Source: Thalassobaculaceae bacterium
GTDB taxonomy: Bacteria; Pseudomonadota; Alphaproteobacteria; Thalassobaculales; Thalassobaculaceae
NCBI GenBank assembly: GCA_965228875.1
Contig: OZ245843.1
Coordinates: 602,616-666,615, forward strand
Direction: 5' to 3'
DNA length: 64,000 nucleotides
The first letter of the stretch is position 1; each line of letters opens with the position of its first letter. Shown in pieces: positions 55,741 to 59,933 of this stretch. The position numbers were made by a program, and so were the translations under genes. The notes beneath the pieces were generated by a model. The model was not told the origin of the DNA, made no database searches, and saw only the letters and a program-made list of their open reading frames with translations.

Positions 55741-56586
55741 TTATCCGCCCTTGGCCAGTCGCTCGGCCCAGGCGATGGCCATAGGCAGGAAACCCGCCGG
55801 GATCGTGTGGCCGCCCGGGTGCAGGCAGAGCGCGACCTGTCGGCCGGTGCTGCAGCCGCGCCAGGTCTCGCAGCGGAGCTCGGCGACCTCGGTCACCACG
55901 CTCGGTTCATCCCGGCAGCCGTTCTGCGCGCGCCAGAATGCGATGCCTTCCAGCACGTCGCCCTGGTGGTAGACCTCGCGGATCGCCCGGCCGGCCATGG
56001 GCACCACCGTGTCGCCGGTGCCATGGACGTGCAGCAGGTTCACCGGTCCCGACGGGCAGCTCTGCGGGTGCGGCCGCCAGAAGGCGCCGGCGATCGGCAT
56101 GTAGGCGGTGAACAGGTGGCCGCTGAAACAGGCCAGGTGCCAGGTCATCGAGCCGCCGATGGAGAAGCCGGAGGCCCAGACCCGGGCGTCGTCCACCGGC
56201 CAGCGCCGCCTTGCGTCGGCGAGGACGGCCGCCACGAAGGCGTCGTCGTCGCGCAGGCGCTGGCGTGCGGGCGATCCCTGATGCGCCCAGCGCCTGTCCT
56301 GGCCGTCCGGGGCGATCACCAGCACCCCGTGGTCGTCGGCGAGGCGGTTCAGCGCCTTGTTGTTCATCACCAGCCCGCCGGTCTGGCCGTAGCCGTGGAA
56401 GAACATCAGCAGGGGCAGGGCGGCCCGCCCGTCCCAGGACCGCGGCGGATGGGCGCGGTAGGTGCCACCCTCGACAGGGTAGATGTCGGGGTGATGCGCG
56501 CCGGCGGGCGTCGCCGGAAGCGTGACGAACAGGAGAACCGCAAGCGCCAGGGCGGCGACGAAGGCGGTCGGGAGCTGGCGGCGCAT
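55741..56586 (-). CDS. Secreted alpha/beta-hydrolase, PHB-depolymerase/LpqC-like esterase
   Basis: Signal peptide, FFHGYG, GFSIGG nucleophile, HGTGDTVVP, GGH. Confidence 0.85.
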   Translation of the reverse strand: MRRQLPTAFVAALALAVLLFVTLPATPAGAHHPDIYPVEGGTYRAHPPRSWDGRAALPLLMFFHGYGQTGGLVMNNKALNRLADDHGVLVIAPDGQDRRWAHQGSPARQRLRDDDAFVAAVLADARRRWPVDDARVWASGFSIGGSMTWHLACFSGHLFTAYMPIAGAFWRPHPQSCPSGPVNLLHVHGTGDTVVPMAGRAIREVYHQGDVLEGIAFWRAQNGCRDEPSVVTEVAELRCETWRGCSTGRQVALCLHPGGHTIPAGFLPMAIAWAERLAKGG

Positions 56587-56933
56587 GGCGGTCTCGGATG
56601 GGGCGTGTAGGGGCGGACGCCGTCGGAGGCTGGCGCGCGGCGGGGAACGCGTCCAGTGACAAGCCCGTGTCCCGCCCCCGATCGAGGTGCTGTCGAGTGA
56701 TTCGGGCATACCAGGGGTGGTATGCTGCGATGCGTCGACCACACCACTATATTGGAATTATTGATGTTTTCGCCACGGTCTTGTCGCACGGGCGGTCAGA
56801 CCACACGCTTTCCTCGGTGCTCAGCCGTTCCAGGAGGTCGCGATTTGAATTTTCGCCGGTTCGCTGACGCCAATCGTCCGAAAATTCAGTCCGTACACCC
56901 TGGGTAGACCAACGAGTCCCGAGGAGTGTCTTT

Positions 56934-57047
56934 ATGTTGACTCTAGCTCAGAGAGGAGGTGATCCGATGACATCTAGTGAGACCCTGGTGCGGGACGAAC
57001 TCGAGTGCCTTGGCAAGTCGTCGGAGCAGCCTTCGGCGCCGATCTGA
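56934..57047 (+). CDS. Candidate small ORF (37 aa from 56934, or 26 aa from 56967) inside a structured RNA
   Basis: MLTLAQRGGDP-MTSSETLVRDELECLGKSSEQPSAPI*; GAGGAG precedes ATG 56934 and AGGAGGTGAT precedes ATG 56967. Confidence 0.45.
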   Translation: MLTLAQRGGDPMTSSETLVRDELECLGKSSEQPSAPI

Positions 57048-57118
57048 AGCACATTTCCCCGAGTTCGAGCCTCACTGGCTCACGGAAAGGCCGCCCACTG
57101 GCGGCCTTTCTTTGTGTT
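56950..57118 (+). ncRNA. Candidate structured small RNA (boundaries uncertain)
   Basis: Nested helices 56974-56981/57071-57078, 56996-57003/57060-57067, 57005-57008/57049-57052 and 57021-57024/57039-57042, followed directly by an intrinsic terminator. Confidence 0.5.
57085..57118 (+). terminator. Rho-independent terminator
   Basis: GAAAGGCCGCC-cact-GGCGGCCTTTC perfect 11-bp stem followed by TTTGTGTT. Confidence 0.88.
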
Positions 57119-57141
57119 GGGGCAGATCTTTGTGTTGGGGC
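57109..57141 (+). repeat. 15-nt direct repeat TCTTTGTGTTGGGGC, two copies at an 18-bp period
   Basis: Copies at 57109-57123 and 57127-57141. Confidence 0.8.
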
Positions 57142-57290
57142 GGGCGACGAGCCGGCTGGAGACAGTCCCGATGGGATGGGACGATCTGACCGTGTGAATT
57201 TTCTCTCTCTTTCTCGTCGCTTGGAGCGCGATCCGTGGACCTGGCCGTGACGCGAATGCCCGCGACCCCGGCCGAACTGCAAGCGATGGG

Positions 57291-57776
57291 TTAGCTCGGC
57301 AGATCGAGTCCGGCCTGTCGGGCCTTGTCGAGGAACTCGATCACCTTGGCCCGCTTCGTCCGCAATTCCGTCCGATCGAGCGGCAGCGCCTTGAGCCAGA
57401 TCCGAACGCGCTCGACGATCTTTTCCAGGCCTTCGTCCTTGAGGACGTAGTCATCGGCGCCGGCCTGAAAGCTGGTCAACAGCGAGCCCGGACTGCGGCC
57501 GCTGGTGGCCACGATAATCGGTACCGTCTGGCTGATCTTATTGCGCACCGTGGCGATGAACCGGTTCCCGGCTTCGTGGTGGTAGACACCGGGGCGGCTG
57601 AAGATACCGAGATCGACAACGCACAGGTCGATGCGCAGGCGTTCCATAATCGTGATGGCGTGGGCGGCGTCGGTGAAGTTGGAGACCGTCCCATGGACAC
57701 CGTCCACCGCCGCCCGGAACATCATGGTCTGGACCATGTCGTCCTCCAGAAGGAGGATCTGCCGGTCAATCGCCAT
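57291..57776 (-). CDS. Response regulator (receiver domain plus short helical tail, no recognisable output domain)
   Basis: ILLLEDD, VVD (phosphoacceptor), IIVATS, GADDYVLK. Confidence 0.85.
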   Translation of the reverse strand: MAIDRQILLLEDDMVQTMMFRAAVDGVHGTVSNFTDAAHAITIMERLRIDLCVVDLGIFSRPGVYHHEAGNRFIATVRNKISQTVPIIVATSGRSPGSLLTSFQAGADDYVLKDEGLEKIVERVRIWLKALPLDRTELRTKRAKVIEFLDKARQAGLDLPS

Positions 57777-57782
57777 CCGTGG

Positions 57783-59933
57783 TCACTCGGGCCGGGAGGA
57801 GGGGGCTCGGAGGTCGTCGATTTTTGCCAGCGCCTGTTCGACGGAAGCGATGAATGTCTGAACCTCGGCTTCGGACAGCGTGCCACCAGACACGATCCGG
57901 TCCTGAAAGCGGCGACTGAGCGTGCTGAGCCTGAGAAGGCCGATGTTGCCGGAGATCGAGATCAGCTTGTGCAGCGCCTGTCGCTTGTCGGCGGGCTCGA
58001 CGGACTCCGTCTGGACCTGGGCGCCCAACGCCTCGATCTGAACGGCGGCCTCCTTGAGAATCTGCTGCAGCGCGGCATCGGGCACGAGCTTCTGGAGGGT
58101 CTGATATCGCTCGGCGTCGAACTCGGCGACATCGACGGCTTCGCCCGCGTCCGCGGCGTCGCCGCCTTCCGCACGCAGGATGCCGCAGCGTGCGAGCGCG
58201 GCGTAGAGCGCGTCCCGCTCGACCGGCTTTGAAAGGTAGCCGGTCATCCCCGCGTCGAGGCAGGCGTGCATGTCGGCGCGCGAGGCATAGGCGGTCAGGG
58301 CGATGATGGGGACGGAGCGTGCCGGTTCCGGCGTCGTTGCGCGGCGGAGCACCCGCGTCGCCTCCAGGCCGTTCATCACCGGCATCTCGATGTCCATGAG
58401 AACCACATCGATACCGCCGTTGCGGACAATCTGGACGGCCTCGGCGCCATCGGCTGCGGTGACGACGGTACAACCGACCAGCTTCAGGAAGGCGCCGGCA
58501 ATCTCCGCGTTCGTCGGAACATCGTCGACCACCAGAACGCGCGCGGAGTCACGGGCCGGGACGTAGGTCTCGTTCTTGGACGGCCTGCGTGGCACGGTCG
58601 AGGGACCGTCTCCCGGTAGCGGACCGTGGACGACGACCGGCACCTCCACGGTCACGACCGTGCCTCCGCTCTGCGAAGAGTCGATCGAGATCGTGCCACC
58701 GAGGGCCGCCACCGACGCGCGCACGACCGCCATGCCCAGGCCGACGCCGGGGACCGGCGCCGTGCCGAGGCGCTCGAACGGCTCGAAGACCCGCTCGATA
58801 CTGTCCTGGGGGATACCGGGACCGGTGTCGCTCACCGCAATCGTCAGGCGCGCGTCGGAACCGGAACCCTCCACCGCCGTTCGCACGACGACATGGCCCT
58901 GCTGGGTGAACTTGACCGCGTTGGAGAGGATGTTGACCAGAATCTGGCGCAGCATCGGGCCATCGGTCTCGATAGCCAGGGCGGGCACACCTTCGCTGCT
59001 GCTGCGGACATCAAGGCCCTTCGCTTCGGCCTCGACGCGAAGCTCGTCGAGGGCACCGCCGACGACGGCCGGCAGGATACAGGGCGCCAGTTCGACAGGG
59101 GGAGGGGCGTCCTGCGACTGCGAAAACTGGATAATGCTGTCGATCAGACGCAGCAGATCCTTCGCCGATCCACTGAGGCGCCTCACCCGGTCGGCCTGTT
59201 TTTCGGTGAGCGCGTCGTCCCGCAGTAGCTGGGCATAGCCGAGAATGGCGTTCAGCGGCGTCCGGACCTCGTGACTCATCATGGCGATGAACCGGTTGCG
59301 CACGCTCAGTGCTTCTCGGGCGGCGGCTTCGCTTCGGCTCAGTGAGGCGAGCATGTCGCGCCGGTGTCGTTCCAGCGAGACCATCAGGCCAAGAATGGCG
59401 ACGCCCCCCACGTTGGTGAGCACCAGGACAGTCCCGACACTGGGCAAGAGCGACCAGGCGAGGTCGGTGTCCGGCAGCAGGAAAATCGACGGCAGCCCGA
59501 CAATGGTGGCGCCGGCGGCATAGATCAGGAGTACGGGGAAGGTGCGTTTGACGTTCCAGCGCTGCAAGGCGTACCAGGCGACGATGCTGCTCAGCGCCGA
59601 GACAACGAGGCCGGCCACGCCGGCTTCCATACCGATCCCGCCGATCCAGATTCGCATGAATACGGGCGGGATTACCGCGACGACCGCGGTTACCGGCCCG
59701 CCCAGGATCCCCGATAGGAGGATGGGCGCGGCGCGAGCGTCGAAGATCAGGCCCGGGATCAGGGTCACCGGTATCAGCATCACGATGGCGGAAACGCCGC
59801 CCAGGCCAAGGCCGATCGCCAGAAACCTCTGCATCGGGCTCCAGCCGTCCTCGATCCGCGGTGTTGCCGTGTAGAGCAGCGCGGCCAAGGCGAGGAGCGC
59901 TACGTTCTCGATAAGCGGCAGAACAGTTTCCAT
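57783..59933 (-). CDS. Hybrid sensor kinase (5TM-LytS-like input, HisKA, HATPase, REC, Hpt)
   Basis: PGLIFDAR...GGP (5TM-5TMR_LYT-like), MSHEVRTPLNAI, NAVKFT, DTGPGI, VLMDIEMPVMNG, ALHKLISISGNIG (Hpt-like). Confidence 0.9.
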   Translation of the reverse strand: METVLPLIENVALLALAALLYTATPRIEDGWSPMQRFLAIGLGLGGVSAIVMLIPVTLIPGLIFDARAAPILLSGILGGPVTAVVAVIPPVFMRIWIGGIGMEAGVAGLVVSALSSIVAWYALQRWNVKRTFPVLLIYAAGATIVGLPSIFLLPDTDLAWSLLPSVGTVLVLTNVGGVAILGLMVSLERHRRDMLASLSRSEAAAREALSVRNRFIAMMSHEVRTPLNAILGYAQLLRDDALTEKQADRVRRLSGSAKDLLRLIDSIIQFSQSQDAPPPVELAPCILPAVVGGALDELRVEAEAKGLDVRSSSEGVPALAIETDGPMLRQILVNILSNAVKFTQQGHVVVRTAVEGSGSDARLTIAVSDTGPGIPQDSIERVFEPFERLGTAPVPGVGLGMAVVRASVAALGGTISIDSSQSGGTVVTVEVPVVVHGPLPGDGPSTVPRRPSKNETYVPARDSARVLVVDDVPTNAEIAGAFLKLVGCTVVTAADGAEAVQIVRNGGIDVVLMDIEMPVMNGLEATRVLRRATTPEPARSVPIIALTAYASRADMHACLDAGMTGYLSKPVERDALYAALARCGILRAEGGDAADAGEAVDVAEFDAERYQTLQKLVPDAALQQILKEAAVQIEALGAQVQTESVEPADKRQALHKLISISGNIGLLRLSTLSRRFQDRIVSGGTLSEAEVQTFIASVEQALAKIDDLRAPSSRPE

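Follow-up and report, generated by a model that had tools for sequence, protein, structure and literature searches.

A probable rre-class small-mRNA gene with a 16-nt complement to the 16S rRNA 3' end in a Thalassobaculaceae genome, related to the CC2171 family below its Rfam cut-off

The closest described systems are the rre small mRNAs rreB and rreR (Hahn et al., RNA Biol 2016;14:1353; PMC5711450), for which we draw on part of that paper. Found in Bradyrhizobiaceae, rreB is a 165-nt mRNA in Bradyrhizobium japonicum that carries a 17-nt complement to the 16S rRNA 3' end and a 14-codon GTG frame, and analogues with 16-17 nt of complement are described from Caulobacterales, Rhizobiales, Rhodobacterales (rreR, 18 aa) and Rhodospirillales, where the genomic context is not conserved (PMC5711450). 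The ribosomal fraction contains most of the rreB RNA, which sediments together with 30S subunits, and translation of this RNA is weak, being hindered by both the long Shine-Dalgarno (SD) stretch and the GTG start (PMC5711450). Changing the rreB start codon to a stop codon stabilised the RNA, overproduction left growth unaltered, and synthetic RreB and RreR peptides proved unstructured; in the sections used here, the function of the rre genes is called elusive (PMC5711450).

A second description of this type of element is CC2171, which is filed in Rfam (RF01867) as a non-coding sRNA, whereas the family of the locus studied here and the wider class carry a conserved reading frame. CC2171 was reportedly first found in Caulobacter crescentus by Landt and co-workers in 2008. 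The available portions of later sources include a Northern confirmation of CC2171 in Methylorubrum extorquens (bioRxiv 10.1101/2022.01.24.477521) and a listing of RF01867 for Mesorhizobium huakuii (PMC5596092), and no CC2171-specific statement was found in the available main text of Schrader et al. 2014 (PMC4117421). Together with rreB in Bradyrhizobiaceae (PMC5711450), the Mesorhizobium entry agrees with the suggestion, made in a preliminary description of our locus, that similar elements occur in rhizobial intergenic DNA. Neither "Rfam" nor "Landt" occurs in the accessible text of the rreB paper (PMC5711450), and neither "Shine-Dalgarno" nor "rreB" in that of the Methylorubrum CC2171 preprint (bioRxiv 10.1101/2022.01.24.477521); rre and CC2171 appear to be two unlinked names for one class. 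Follow-up work on rreB or rreR beyond the original paper was not found in a literature search that covered few subscription journals. A more distant parallel is provided by the STAB-SD elements of Bacillus mRNAs such as cry3A, in which an SD-like sequence near the 5' end stabilises the transcript through 30S binding. The likeness is that an SD-like sequence may, via the 30S subunit, mainly affect how the RNA fares and not how much protein is made; STAB-SD elements differ in being shorter, in having no following start codon and in lying within the leaders of long mRNAs, and homology is not implied.

The locus considered here lies in a stretch of 64,000 nucleotides, hereafter the window, from the genome of a Thalassobaculaceae bacterium. 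Positions 56950-57116, together with a leader from about 56817, very probably constitute a free-standing small-mRNA gene of the rre class, to which rreB, rreR and the Rfam CC2171 relatives belong, and this gene would act through a four-step docking mechanism. By its sequence, the element belongs to the published alphaproteobacterial rre/CC2171 family as a sub-threshold relative of RF01867, and what seems particular to the window copy is about 120 nt of extra leader and a downstream neighbour unlike those of its relatives. The novelty implied by the preliminary description is lost, because a described Rfam family (RF01867) and a dedicated paper (PMC5711450) already cover this type of element, an outcome for which that description had itself given novelty up.

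The host genome, a single contig of 4,964,776 bases with 67.8% G+C, contains two 16S genes, both with 3' ends reading ...GGATCACCTCCTTTCTAAGG. The extended SD stretch AGAGAGGAGGTGATCC at 56950-56965 of the plus strand is complementary to this own-genome 3' end in 16 consecutive base pairs, of which 15 are Watson-Crick and one is G-U, with the mature end taken to be ...CCUUUCU; the 16-nt complement claimed in the preliminary description was recovered at the same place against the organism's own 16S ends. The contiguous complement of at least 16 nt spanning the SD that marks rre genes is present here with one wobble, given the assumed mature 16S end, and the rre paper speaks, in the part used, of perfect complementarity (PMC5711450). 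When up to two mismatches are allowed, the window contains a single occurrence of the motif, where 0.02 would be expected, and 2 of 100 shuffles have at least one match. SD-core sites throughout the genome were scored for the duplex that they form with the 16-nt 16S tail, and among the 100,146 sites that at 56950-56965 had the lowest energy (-30.5 kcal/mol), compared with -30.3 kcal/mol for the antisense of the rDNA end and -25.8 kcal/mol for the next-ranked site. The 12-mer AGGAGGTGATCC has six exact copies in the genome: two antisense of the 16S ends, the site at 56950-56965 and three others, which on reading by eye have no start codon 5-10 nt downstream. Ten of 12 family orthologues carry GAAAGGAGGTGATCC, the exceptions being one with a one-base shift before the SD (L014) and one that lacks an A (L018, GGAGGTGTCC), and relative to the genus relatives an A-to-G change in the window SD creates the G-U pair. 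The 16S-complementary stretch is not a product of chance.

One base beyond the 16S complement and 7 nt after AGGAGG, an ATG at 56967 opens a small ORF of 26 codons plus TGA on the plus strand (56967..57047, with the TGA at 57045-57047; peptide MTSSETLVRDELECLGKSSEQPSAPI), which was correctly read in the preliminary description. A short ORF starting at the 3' edge of the complement, as is typical of rre genes, is therefore present with its ATG at 56967 and its 26 codons. The same description had added a 37-aa extension from an in-frame ATG upstream, at 56934, for which there is no support because conservation with the relatives (BLAST) starts only at 56948-56951. The orthologues have frames of 25-26 codons with the peptide pattern MSS[DE]...SEQPS (for example MSSDLAMRGELVCLGAMSEQPSAAV), and the peptide of the AT-rich genome G014 retains MSSE...PEQPS. 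Compared with its genus relatives, the window copy has an ATG start instead of GTG and one additional codon (ACA). If the start of the esterase-like gene is the internal Met near 56587, about 700 bp would hold no convincing plus-strand gene.

Most of this frame lies within a rod-like fold of 107 nt on the plus strand (56977-57083), closed by pairing of GUGAG (56977-56981) with CUCAC (57079-57083). All of the ORF from the fourth codon onwards, stop included, lies in the rod, as do the 36 nt after the stop, and the rod is present in every fold computed, in MFE and centroid structures alike. The stability of the fold is moderately unusual (z -1.9 to -3.7), with z -2.3 for the 174-nt unit, where 6 of 200 shuffles were equally stable, and z -3.7 for the 306-nt putative transcript, where 0 of 100 were. 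In the consensus fold of 13 sequences, 95.4% of cells were paired versus 31-50% with slid partners, and six pairs changed on both sides, a number equalled in 2 of 500 shuffles; covariation is weak (term -0.02), its score being equalled in 19 of 500 shuffles. Directly behind the rod, an intrinsic terminator with a U-rich tail (57084..57116, plus strand) is present in all 13 aligned sequences; its hairpin (57084-57111) has a 4-nt loop and a stem of 12 pairs, 8 of them G-C, and it marks the end of the similarity to relatives (BLAST). Both the rod around most of the ORF, here extending from the fourth codon through the stop, and the strong terminator closing the unit at 57084-57111 had been noticed in the preliminary description, and both hold.

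The upstream part of the unit is where the window copy departs most from its relatives. In the genus relatives, GGAGG lies 8 nt past a conserved TTCAACCAAC-type leader, which is itself preceded by a TTG(T/C)(C/G)G box and a CACC(A/C)T box. The best local alignment placed window positions 56754/56768-56826 colinear with -80/-68 to -8 before GGAGG in 7 of 8 same-genus relatives (z 3.0-7.4); in the eighth, L009, the alignment falls elsewhere (z 2.5), and a more strictly scored local alignment of the upstream region gave mixed results (z -0.5 to 6.1). Promoter homology with the relatives is accordingly likely but not proven, as only the softer scoring maps consistently. The region 56768..56826 (plus strand) would then hold a putative promoter and the first part of the 5' leader, with a -35-like CTTGTC (56780-56785) and a -10-like CACGCT (56804-56809), and transcription would start near 56815-56820. 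Since a consensus scan of 56400-57500 found no sigma-70 site, the candidate promoter is drawn from the alignment to relatives, so that, of the own promoter and terminator that characterise an rre gene, the terminator is clear and the promoter is a putative one.

Because the intact SD begins only at 56950, about 120 nt of the leader (56827..56947, plus strand), which cannot be aligned to the genus relatives, are extra. Within this segment lie an SD-like AGGAGGT (56832-56838), a hairpin of 10 bp (56846-56855 pairing with 56879-56888) and GAGGAG with an ATG (56921-56936), the source of the 37-aa reading, and in the MFE structure 56811-56925 forms one closed domain. The CAACAA-like 5' motif is missing from the window copy, and the leader region of this genome looks rearranged. 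Four runs, each from a different study, provide short contigs over the region, although contigs of this kind show no ends, strand or level: a 233-nt contig (X1, 56831-57063) identical to the window, whose RNA origin is a guess; a 283-nt contig from 56800 (X2), probably of DNA; and two contigs of 169 nt (X3, 56881-57050) and 222 nt (X5, 56837-57053) from two libraries recorded as RNA in two different studies. This cover fits a transcript with the extra leader included, and the contigs of the two RNA libraries provide a hint of transcription.

A BLAST search of the DNA of 41 genomes, made up of the one holding the window and 40 relatives, recovered the unit in 12 of 24 same-family genomes, comprising 8 of 10 from the same genus and 4 of 14 from other genera; the two same-genus genomes that lack it are each listed at 1.5 Mb. 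Identity was 75-80% for the genus matches and for three long other-genus matches, the match in the fourth other-genus genome (G014) covered just 32 nt at 88%, and those in G021 and G027 covered the terminator only. The similarity of the orthologues begins at window positions 56948-56951, with the SD, and stops at 57111-57115, with the terminator, and the unit is therefore best regarded as a gene in its own right. As in rre genes, RNA and small ORF are conserved together within the lineage (12 of 24 family genomes, 25-26 aa), and the conservation of extended SD and fold on which the preliminary description had made its reading depend was recovered by BLAST for the whole SD-terminator unit in these 12 of 24 genomes. 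The alignments indicate that reading frame and fold are both under selection in the family; the coding signal is a modest one.

The genomic setting is less stable than the unit, in that gene neighbours vary between relatives and the unit itself stays. On the other strand, downstream of the window unit, lie a response regulator and a 5TMR-LYT hybrid histidine kinase; at 6 of the 12 family loci the downstream gene is DnaB, and at the other 6 the frames chosen on that side had no informative domain. In B. japonicum, rreB adjoins a two-component hybrid sensor gene, according to the part of the paper used (PMC5711450). A link to such sensors was considered and rejected, with a HisKA neighbour at 1 of 22 class-sample loci (Pfam, 111 flanking frames) and DnaB in 6 of 12 family loci. 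Two other places in the genome that score better against RF01867 (24.8 and 20.5 bits) were likewise rejected as further copies, having no extended SD and looking like terminators or coding sequence, and no second copy of the unit was found in the 4.96-Mb genome.

Searching Rfam with the window copy gave a single weak hit, to RF01867 (CC2171), at 17.7 bits (E 0.31), which fails the gathering cut-off of 75 bits; the antisense of the 16S end reaches 16.5 bits, about the same. Since the score of the window copy is close to that of the SD motif alone, membership rests on transitive homology through the orthologues, all 12 of which match RF01867 positions 1-159 with 30.2-47.7 bits (E 4e-7 to 9e-3), so that significant full-length homology is found in the orthologues and not in the window copy itself. 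The same graded picture extends across the class. All 20 named loci, among them a Bradyrhizobium locus with a 14-aa frame next to a tRNA and Rhodobacterales loci with 18-aa frames, match RF01867 with scores that grade continuously from 97 to 24 bits, 2 of the 20 passing the cut-off, and in a class sample of 151 genomes a match at E <=0.01 was found in 25, 5 of them above the cut-off. Conversely, 22 of 27 fetched RF01867 loci showed a GGAGGTG[AG]TC-type SD with a frame of 18-32 codons behind it. Kinship of the window unit with the RF01867 and rre loci is thereby indicated at the sequence level.

A pattern scan of species-representative genomes added at least 120 loci, and by the titles of the matches listed, which we take as a guide to taxonomy, 98 are alphaproteobacterial, 13 are named as Proteobacteria/Pseudomonadota only and 9 belong to other groups. 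Burkholderiales loci were also encountered. Outside the search pattern, a CAACAA-like motif at -24 to -19 is conserved, and codon 2 is UCN in 137 of 145 loci and UCU in 107 of 145 (both among the matches listed). The start codon stands at a fixed distance in all class loci, this spacing being part of the pattern for 120 of them. The peptides are of lineage-specific types and wholly different between orders, such as a 14-aa type (MS..KRCHLAGIAR), which includes a Bradyrhizobium locus beside a tRNA, an 18-aa type of Rhodobacterales including Dinoroseobacter (MSR..LE.GVGT), an 18-aa type of Sphingomonadales (MSHGSA..) and a 21-27-aa type found in many Hyphomicrobiales and others (MSHC..). The 14-aa Bradyrhizobium frame by a tRNA and the 18-aa Rhodobacterales frames are as described for rreB and rreR. 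As a separate observation, the docking site, the start and the frame length are invariant across the class and the peptides are variable.

Compared part by part, the window unit resembles the rre genes in its predicted stand-alone small transcript closed by a terminator, in its 16-17-nt 16S 3'-end complement that includes AGGAGG and has the start codon at its end, in a very short frame kept within the lineage and not between lineages, and in a structured RNA body whose genomic context is variable outside the lineage. It differs in the 26 codons of its frame, whose peptide has no relation to RreB or RreR, in the position of the start, where the first base of the rreB/rreR GTG lies inside the complement and the window ATG (GTG in genus relatives) one base beyond it, in the one G-U pair of the duplex and in about 120 nt of extra 5' leader, with which the RNA would probably be near 300 nt. 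To CC2171 the likeness is one of architecture, with a GAAAGGAGGUGAUCC-type 5' end, AUG/GUG-UCN, an outer helix between the first codons and the pre-terminator segment, inner hairpins and a terminator in the same order. The window copy differs from CC2171 in having no CAACAA-like motif, and an internal SD complement of the CUGGAU type is found in 1 of 13 members of the window's family versus 28 of 32 members with "MSHC"-type peptides.

On these grounds, a four-step mechanism can be proposed for the rre-class mRNA. The RNA would dock on the 30S subunit through the 16-nt duplex, which would consume the whole single-stranded 16S 3' tail, and a start codon one base past this duplex would open a frame of 26 codons leading into a long hairpin. 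Given the excessive length of the SD-anti-SD duplex and the structure in the frame, initiation complexes would form readily at 56967 and clear slowly, and little peptide would therefore be made. Finally, the presence of a ribosome at the start codon would set the lifetime of the transcript. The 30S binding, weak translation and ribosome-dependent decay of the window RNA are in this way predicted by homology to the measured Bradyrhizobium rreB. Two of the roles offered by the preliminary description fit this picture: a ribosome-binding RNA would match the 30S co-sedimentation of the homologous rreB, and a tightly controlled micropeptide mRNA its weak translation and start-codon-dependent stability, as given in the part of the paper used (PMC5711450). 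The third role offered there, a sponge for CCUCC-loop sRNAs, is speculative. Given the G-U pair in the SD, at which most relatives pair perfectly, and the long extra leader, the window RNA may behave differently from rreB.

A further reading, rather unlikely and offered tentatively, is that of a ribosome-gated RNA, in which the docking site would titrate or sense free 30S subunits and the act of translating the frame, not its product, would reset the fold and the lifetime of the RNA. The structured 5' domain of about 120 nt in the window copy, with its weaker SD-like site, would then represent a variant with altered gating.

Whether the small mRNA is translated at all bears on the next alternative, which we consider unlikely, namely that the unit is a purely non-coding regulatory RNA, either a ribosome-binding or ribosome-sequestering site or a decoy for anti-SD-like sRNAs, with a frame that is never productively translated. 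The pattern of conservation offers this reading some ground. Variable sites number 12, 9 and 14 of 24 by codon position, nucleotide conservation reaches most synonymous sites, and in the block TCG GAG CAG CCT TCG only the wobble site of CAG, among five, varies (to CAA or CAT); with so few wobble changes and a 3' untranslated part (GAGTTCGAGCC...GGCTCACGGAAAGGCC) as conserved as the frame, much of the constraint thus falls on the RNA. The complete difference of peptides between orders points the same way, as do the U at the wobble position of codon 2 in 107 of 145 loci among the matches listed, even in GC-rich genomes, and the unstructured state of the synthetic RreB and RreR peptides in the part of the paper used (PMC5711450). 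Against a frame that is never translated stand several features of the frame itself. Its stop occupies the same alignment columns across the orthologues and switches identity in place between TGA, TAA and TAG, and its only two indels are of 3 nt each, compared with 1- and 2-nt gaps in the 3' part (13 sequences). In the wider class, frame 0 stops after 10-33 codons in 145 of 151 loci and never before 10, against 63 and 40 of 151 for the shifted frames, counts that cover the matches listed and are descriptive because related genomes are not independent. The distance of the start codon is fixed in all loci (by the search pattern in 120), and in the sections of the rreB paper drawn on, rreB fusions were weakly translated and overproduction of the ribosome-binding RNA left growth unchanged (PMC5711450).

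That the 26-aa peptide is the sole functional product of an ordinary small-protein gene, in which a long SD secures initiation in a genome where many genes have no good SD, is very unlikely. The frame and the MSS[DE]...SEQPS motif are conserved in the family, and pN/pS is below 1, at 0.53 in the frame versus 0.88 and 1.30 in the shifted frames (10 of 13 sequences, leaving out G000 and G014, which have an extra codon, and L012, whose ORF is identical to that of L011). A value of 0.53 is, however, weak for a strongly selected peptide. What is invariant in the class is a set of RNA features (the CAACAA-like motif, the 15-17-nt SD, AUG/GUG-UCN and the terminator) and not the peptide, and the extended SD of rreB lowers translation and does not raise it, in the portion of the paper used (PMC5711450). 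Finally, a role as cis-acting leader or attenuator for an adjacent gene, or a fortuitous origin of the SD-like stretch in decaying DNA, could be suggested by the long intergenic gap and the rearranged look of the leader region, but is hardly credible given the unit's own terminator, the placement of the next downstream genes on the other strand, neighbours that differ among relatives where the unit is conserved, and a chance expectation of 0.02 per window.

The rre-class small mRNA therefore stays the preferred reading, and its meaning lies mostly at the level of the class. The rre/CC2171 class extends well below the Rfam cut-off, and curated annotation therefore misses most of it: of the 20 named loci 2 pass, and of the 25 genomes with a match 5. 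The window copy alone leaves the field unchanged; it would serve as a natural variant, with its G-U duplex, ATG start and long leader, that can be compared with its genus relatives. Many Alphaproteobacteria retain a single RNA complementary to the whole free tail of 16S rRNA, and the combination of an invariant docking site, start and frame length with variable peptides leaves room for the possibility that it is the act of translation, and not the peptide, that matters.

The analysis of the bases directly after the start codon of the small open reading frame (window positions 56967-57047 in the present copy) reveals a preference for U at the wobble positions of codons 2 and 3, which carry it in 107 and 113, respectively, of the 145 loci listed for the rre/CC2171 class. 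Since this U is retained also in GC-rich genomes, the pattern points to a constraint acting at the nucleotide level. Moreover, 28 of 32 loci whose frames begin with MSHC (L032-L036 and 27 others) contain a hexamer of the type CUGG(A/G)(U/C) 32-44 nt past the start codon. This hexamer is the complement of the 3' portion of the Shine-Dalgarno (SD) sequence, and a self-occluding pairing between the two would be possible in these loci. The window's own family carries such a hexamer in only 1 of its 13 aligned sequences.

At the terminator (57084-57116) and in the same region of the relatives, the GAAAGG of the relatives' SD recurs in the 5' arm, GGAAAGGCC, and there is a resemblance between the final bases of 16S rRNA and the 3' arm with its tail, GGCCUUUCUU. 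When the 174-nt unit is folded in silico, this tail pairs with the bases immediately 5' of the SD. The 3' edge of the element is further distinguished by a perfect direct repeat, TCTTTGTGTTGGGGC, present in two copies of 15 nt spaced 18 nt start to start (57109-57141), the first of which overlaps the 3' arm and U-rich tail of the terminator. Because similarity to the relatives stops in this region, the repeat may mark a rearrangement junction. Downstream of the element, the minus strand (57291-59933) encodes a response regulator that consists of a single domain, along with a 716-aa hybrid histidine kinase that combines 5TMR-LYT, HisKA, HATPase_c and receiver domains; in 6 of the 12 family relatives this position is occupied by dnaB instead.

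Across the wider class, contigs from Acetobacteraceae, Azospirillum and Geminicoccaceae (L102, L131, L170 and L172) carry the same extended SD ahead of longer frames, 48-60 codons in length, with N-termini that by eye appear hydrophobic and signal-peptide-like; judged from these sequences, the docking site is not restricted to mini-frames. Three contigs from Burkholderiales or uncultured Bordetella metagenome-assembled genomes (L106, L125 and L160) display the signature found elsewhere in the class, GAAAGGAGGTGATCC followed by N and GTG, ahead of frames of 24-27 codons sharing an MRD.QG start. This combination of signature and common start suggests an rre-like lineage in Betaproteobacteria, a group not among the orders that Hahn et al. 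(PMC5711450) listed.
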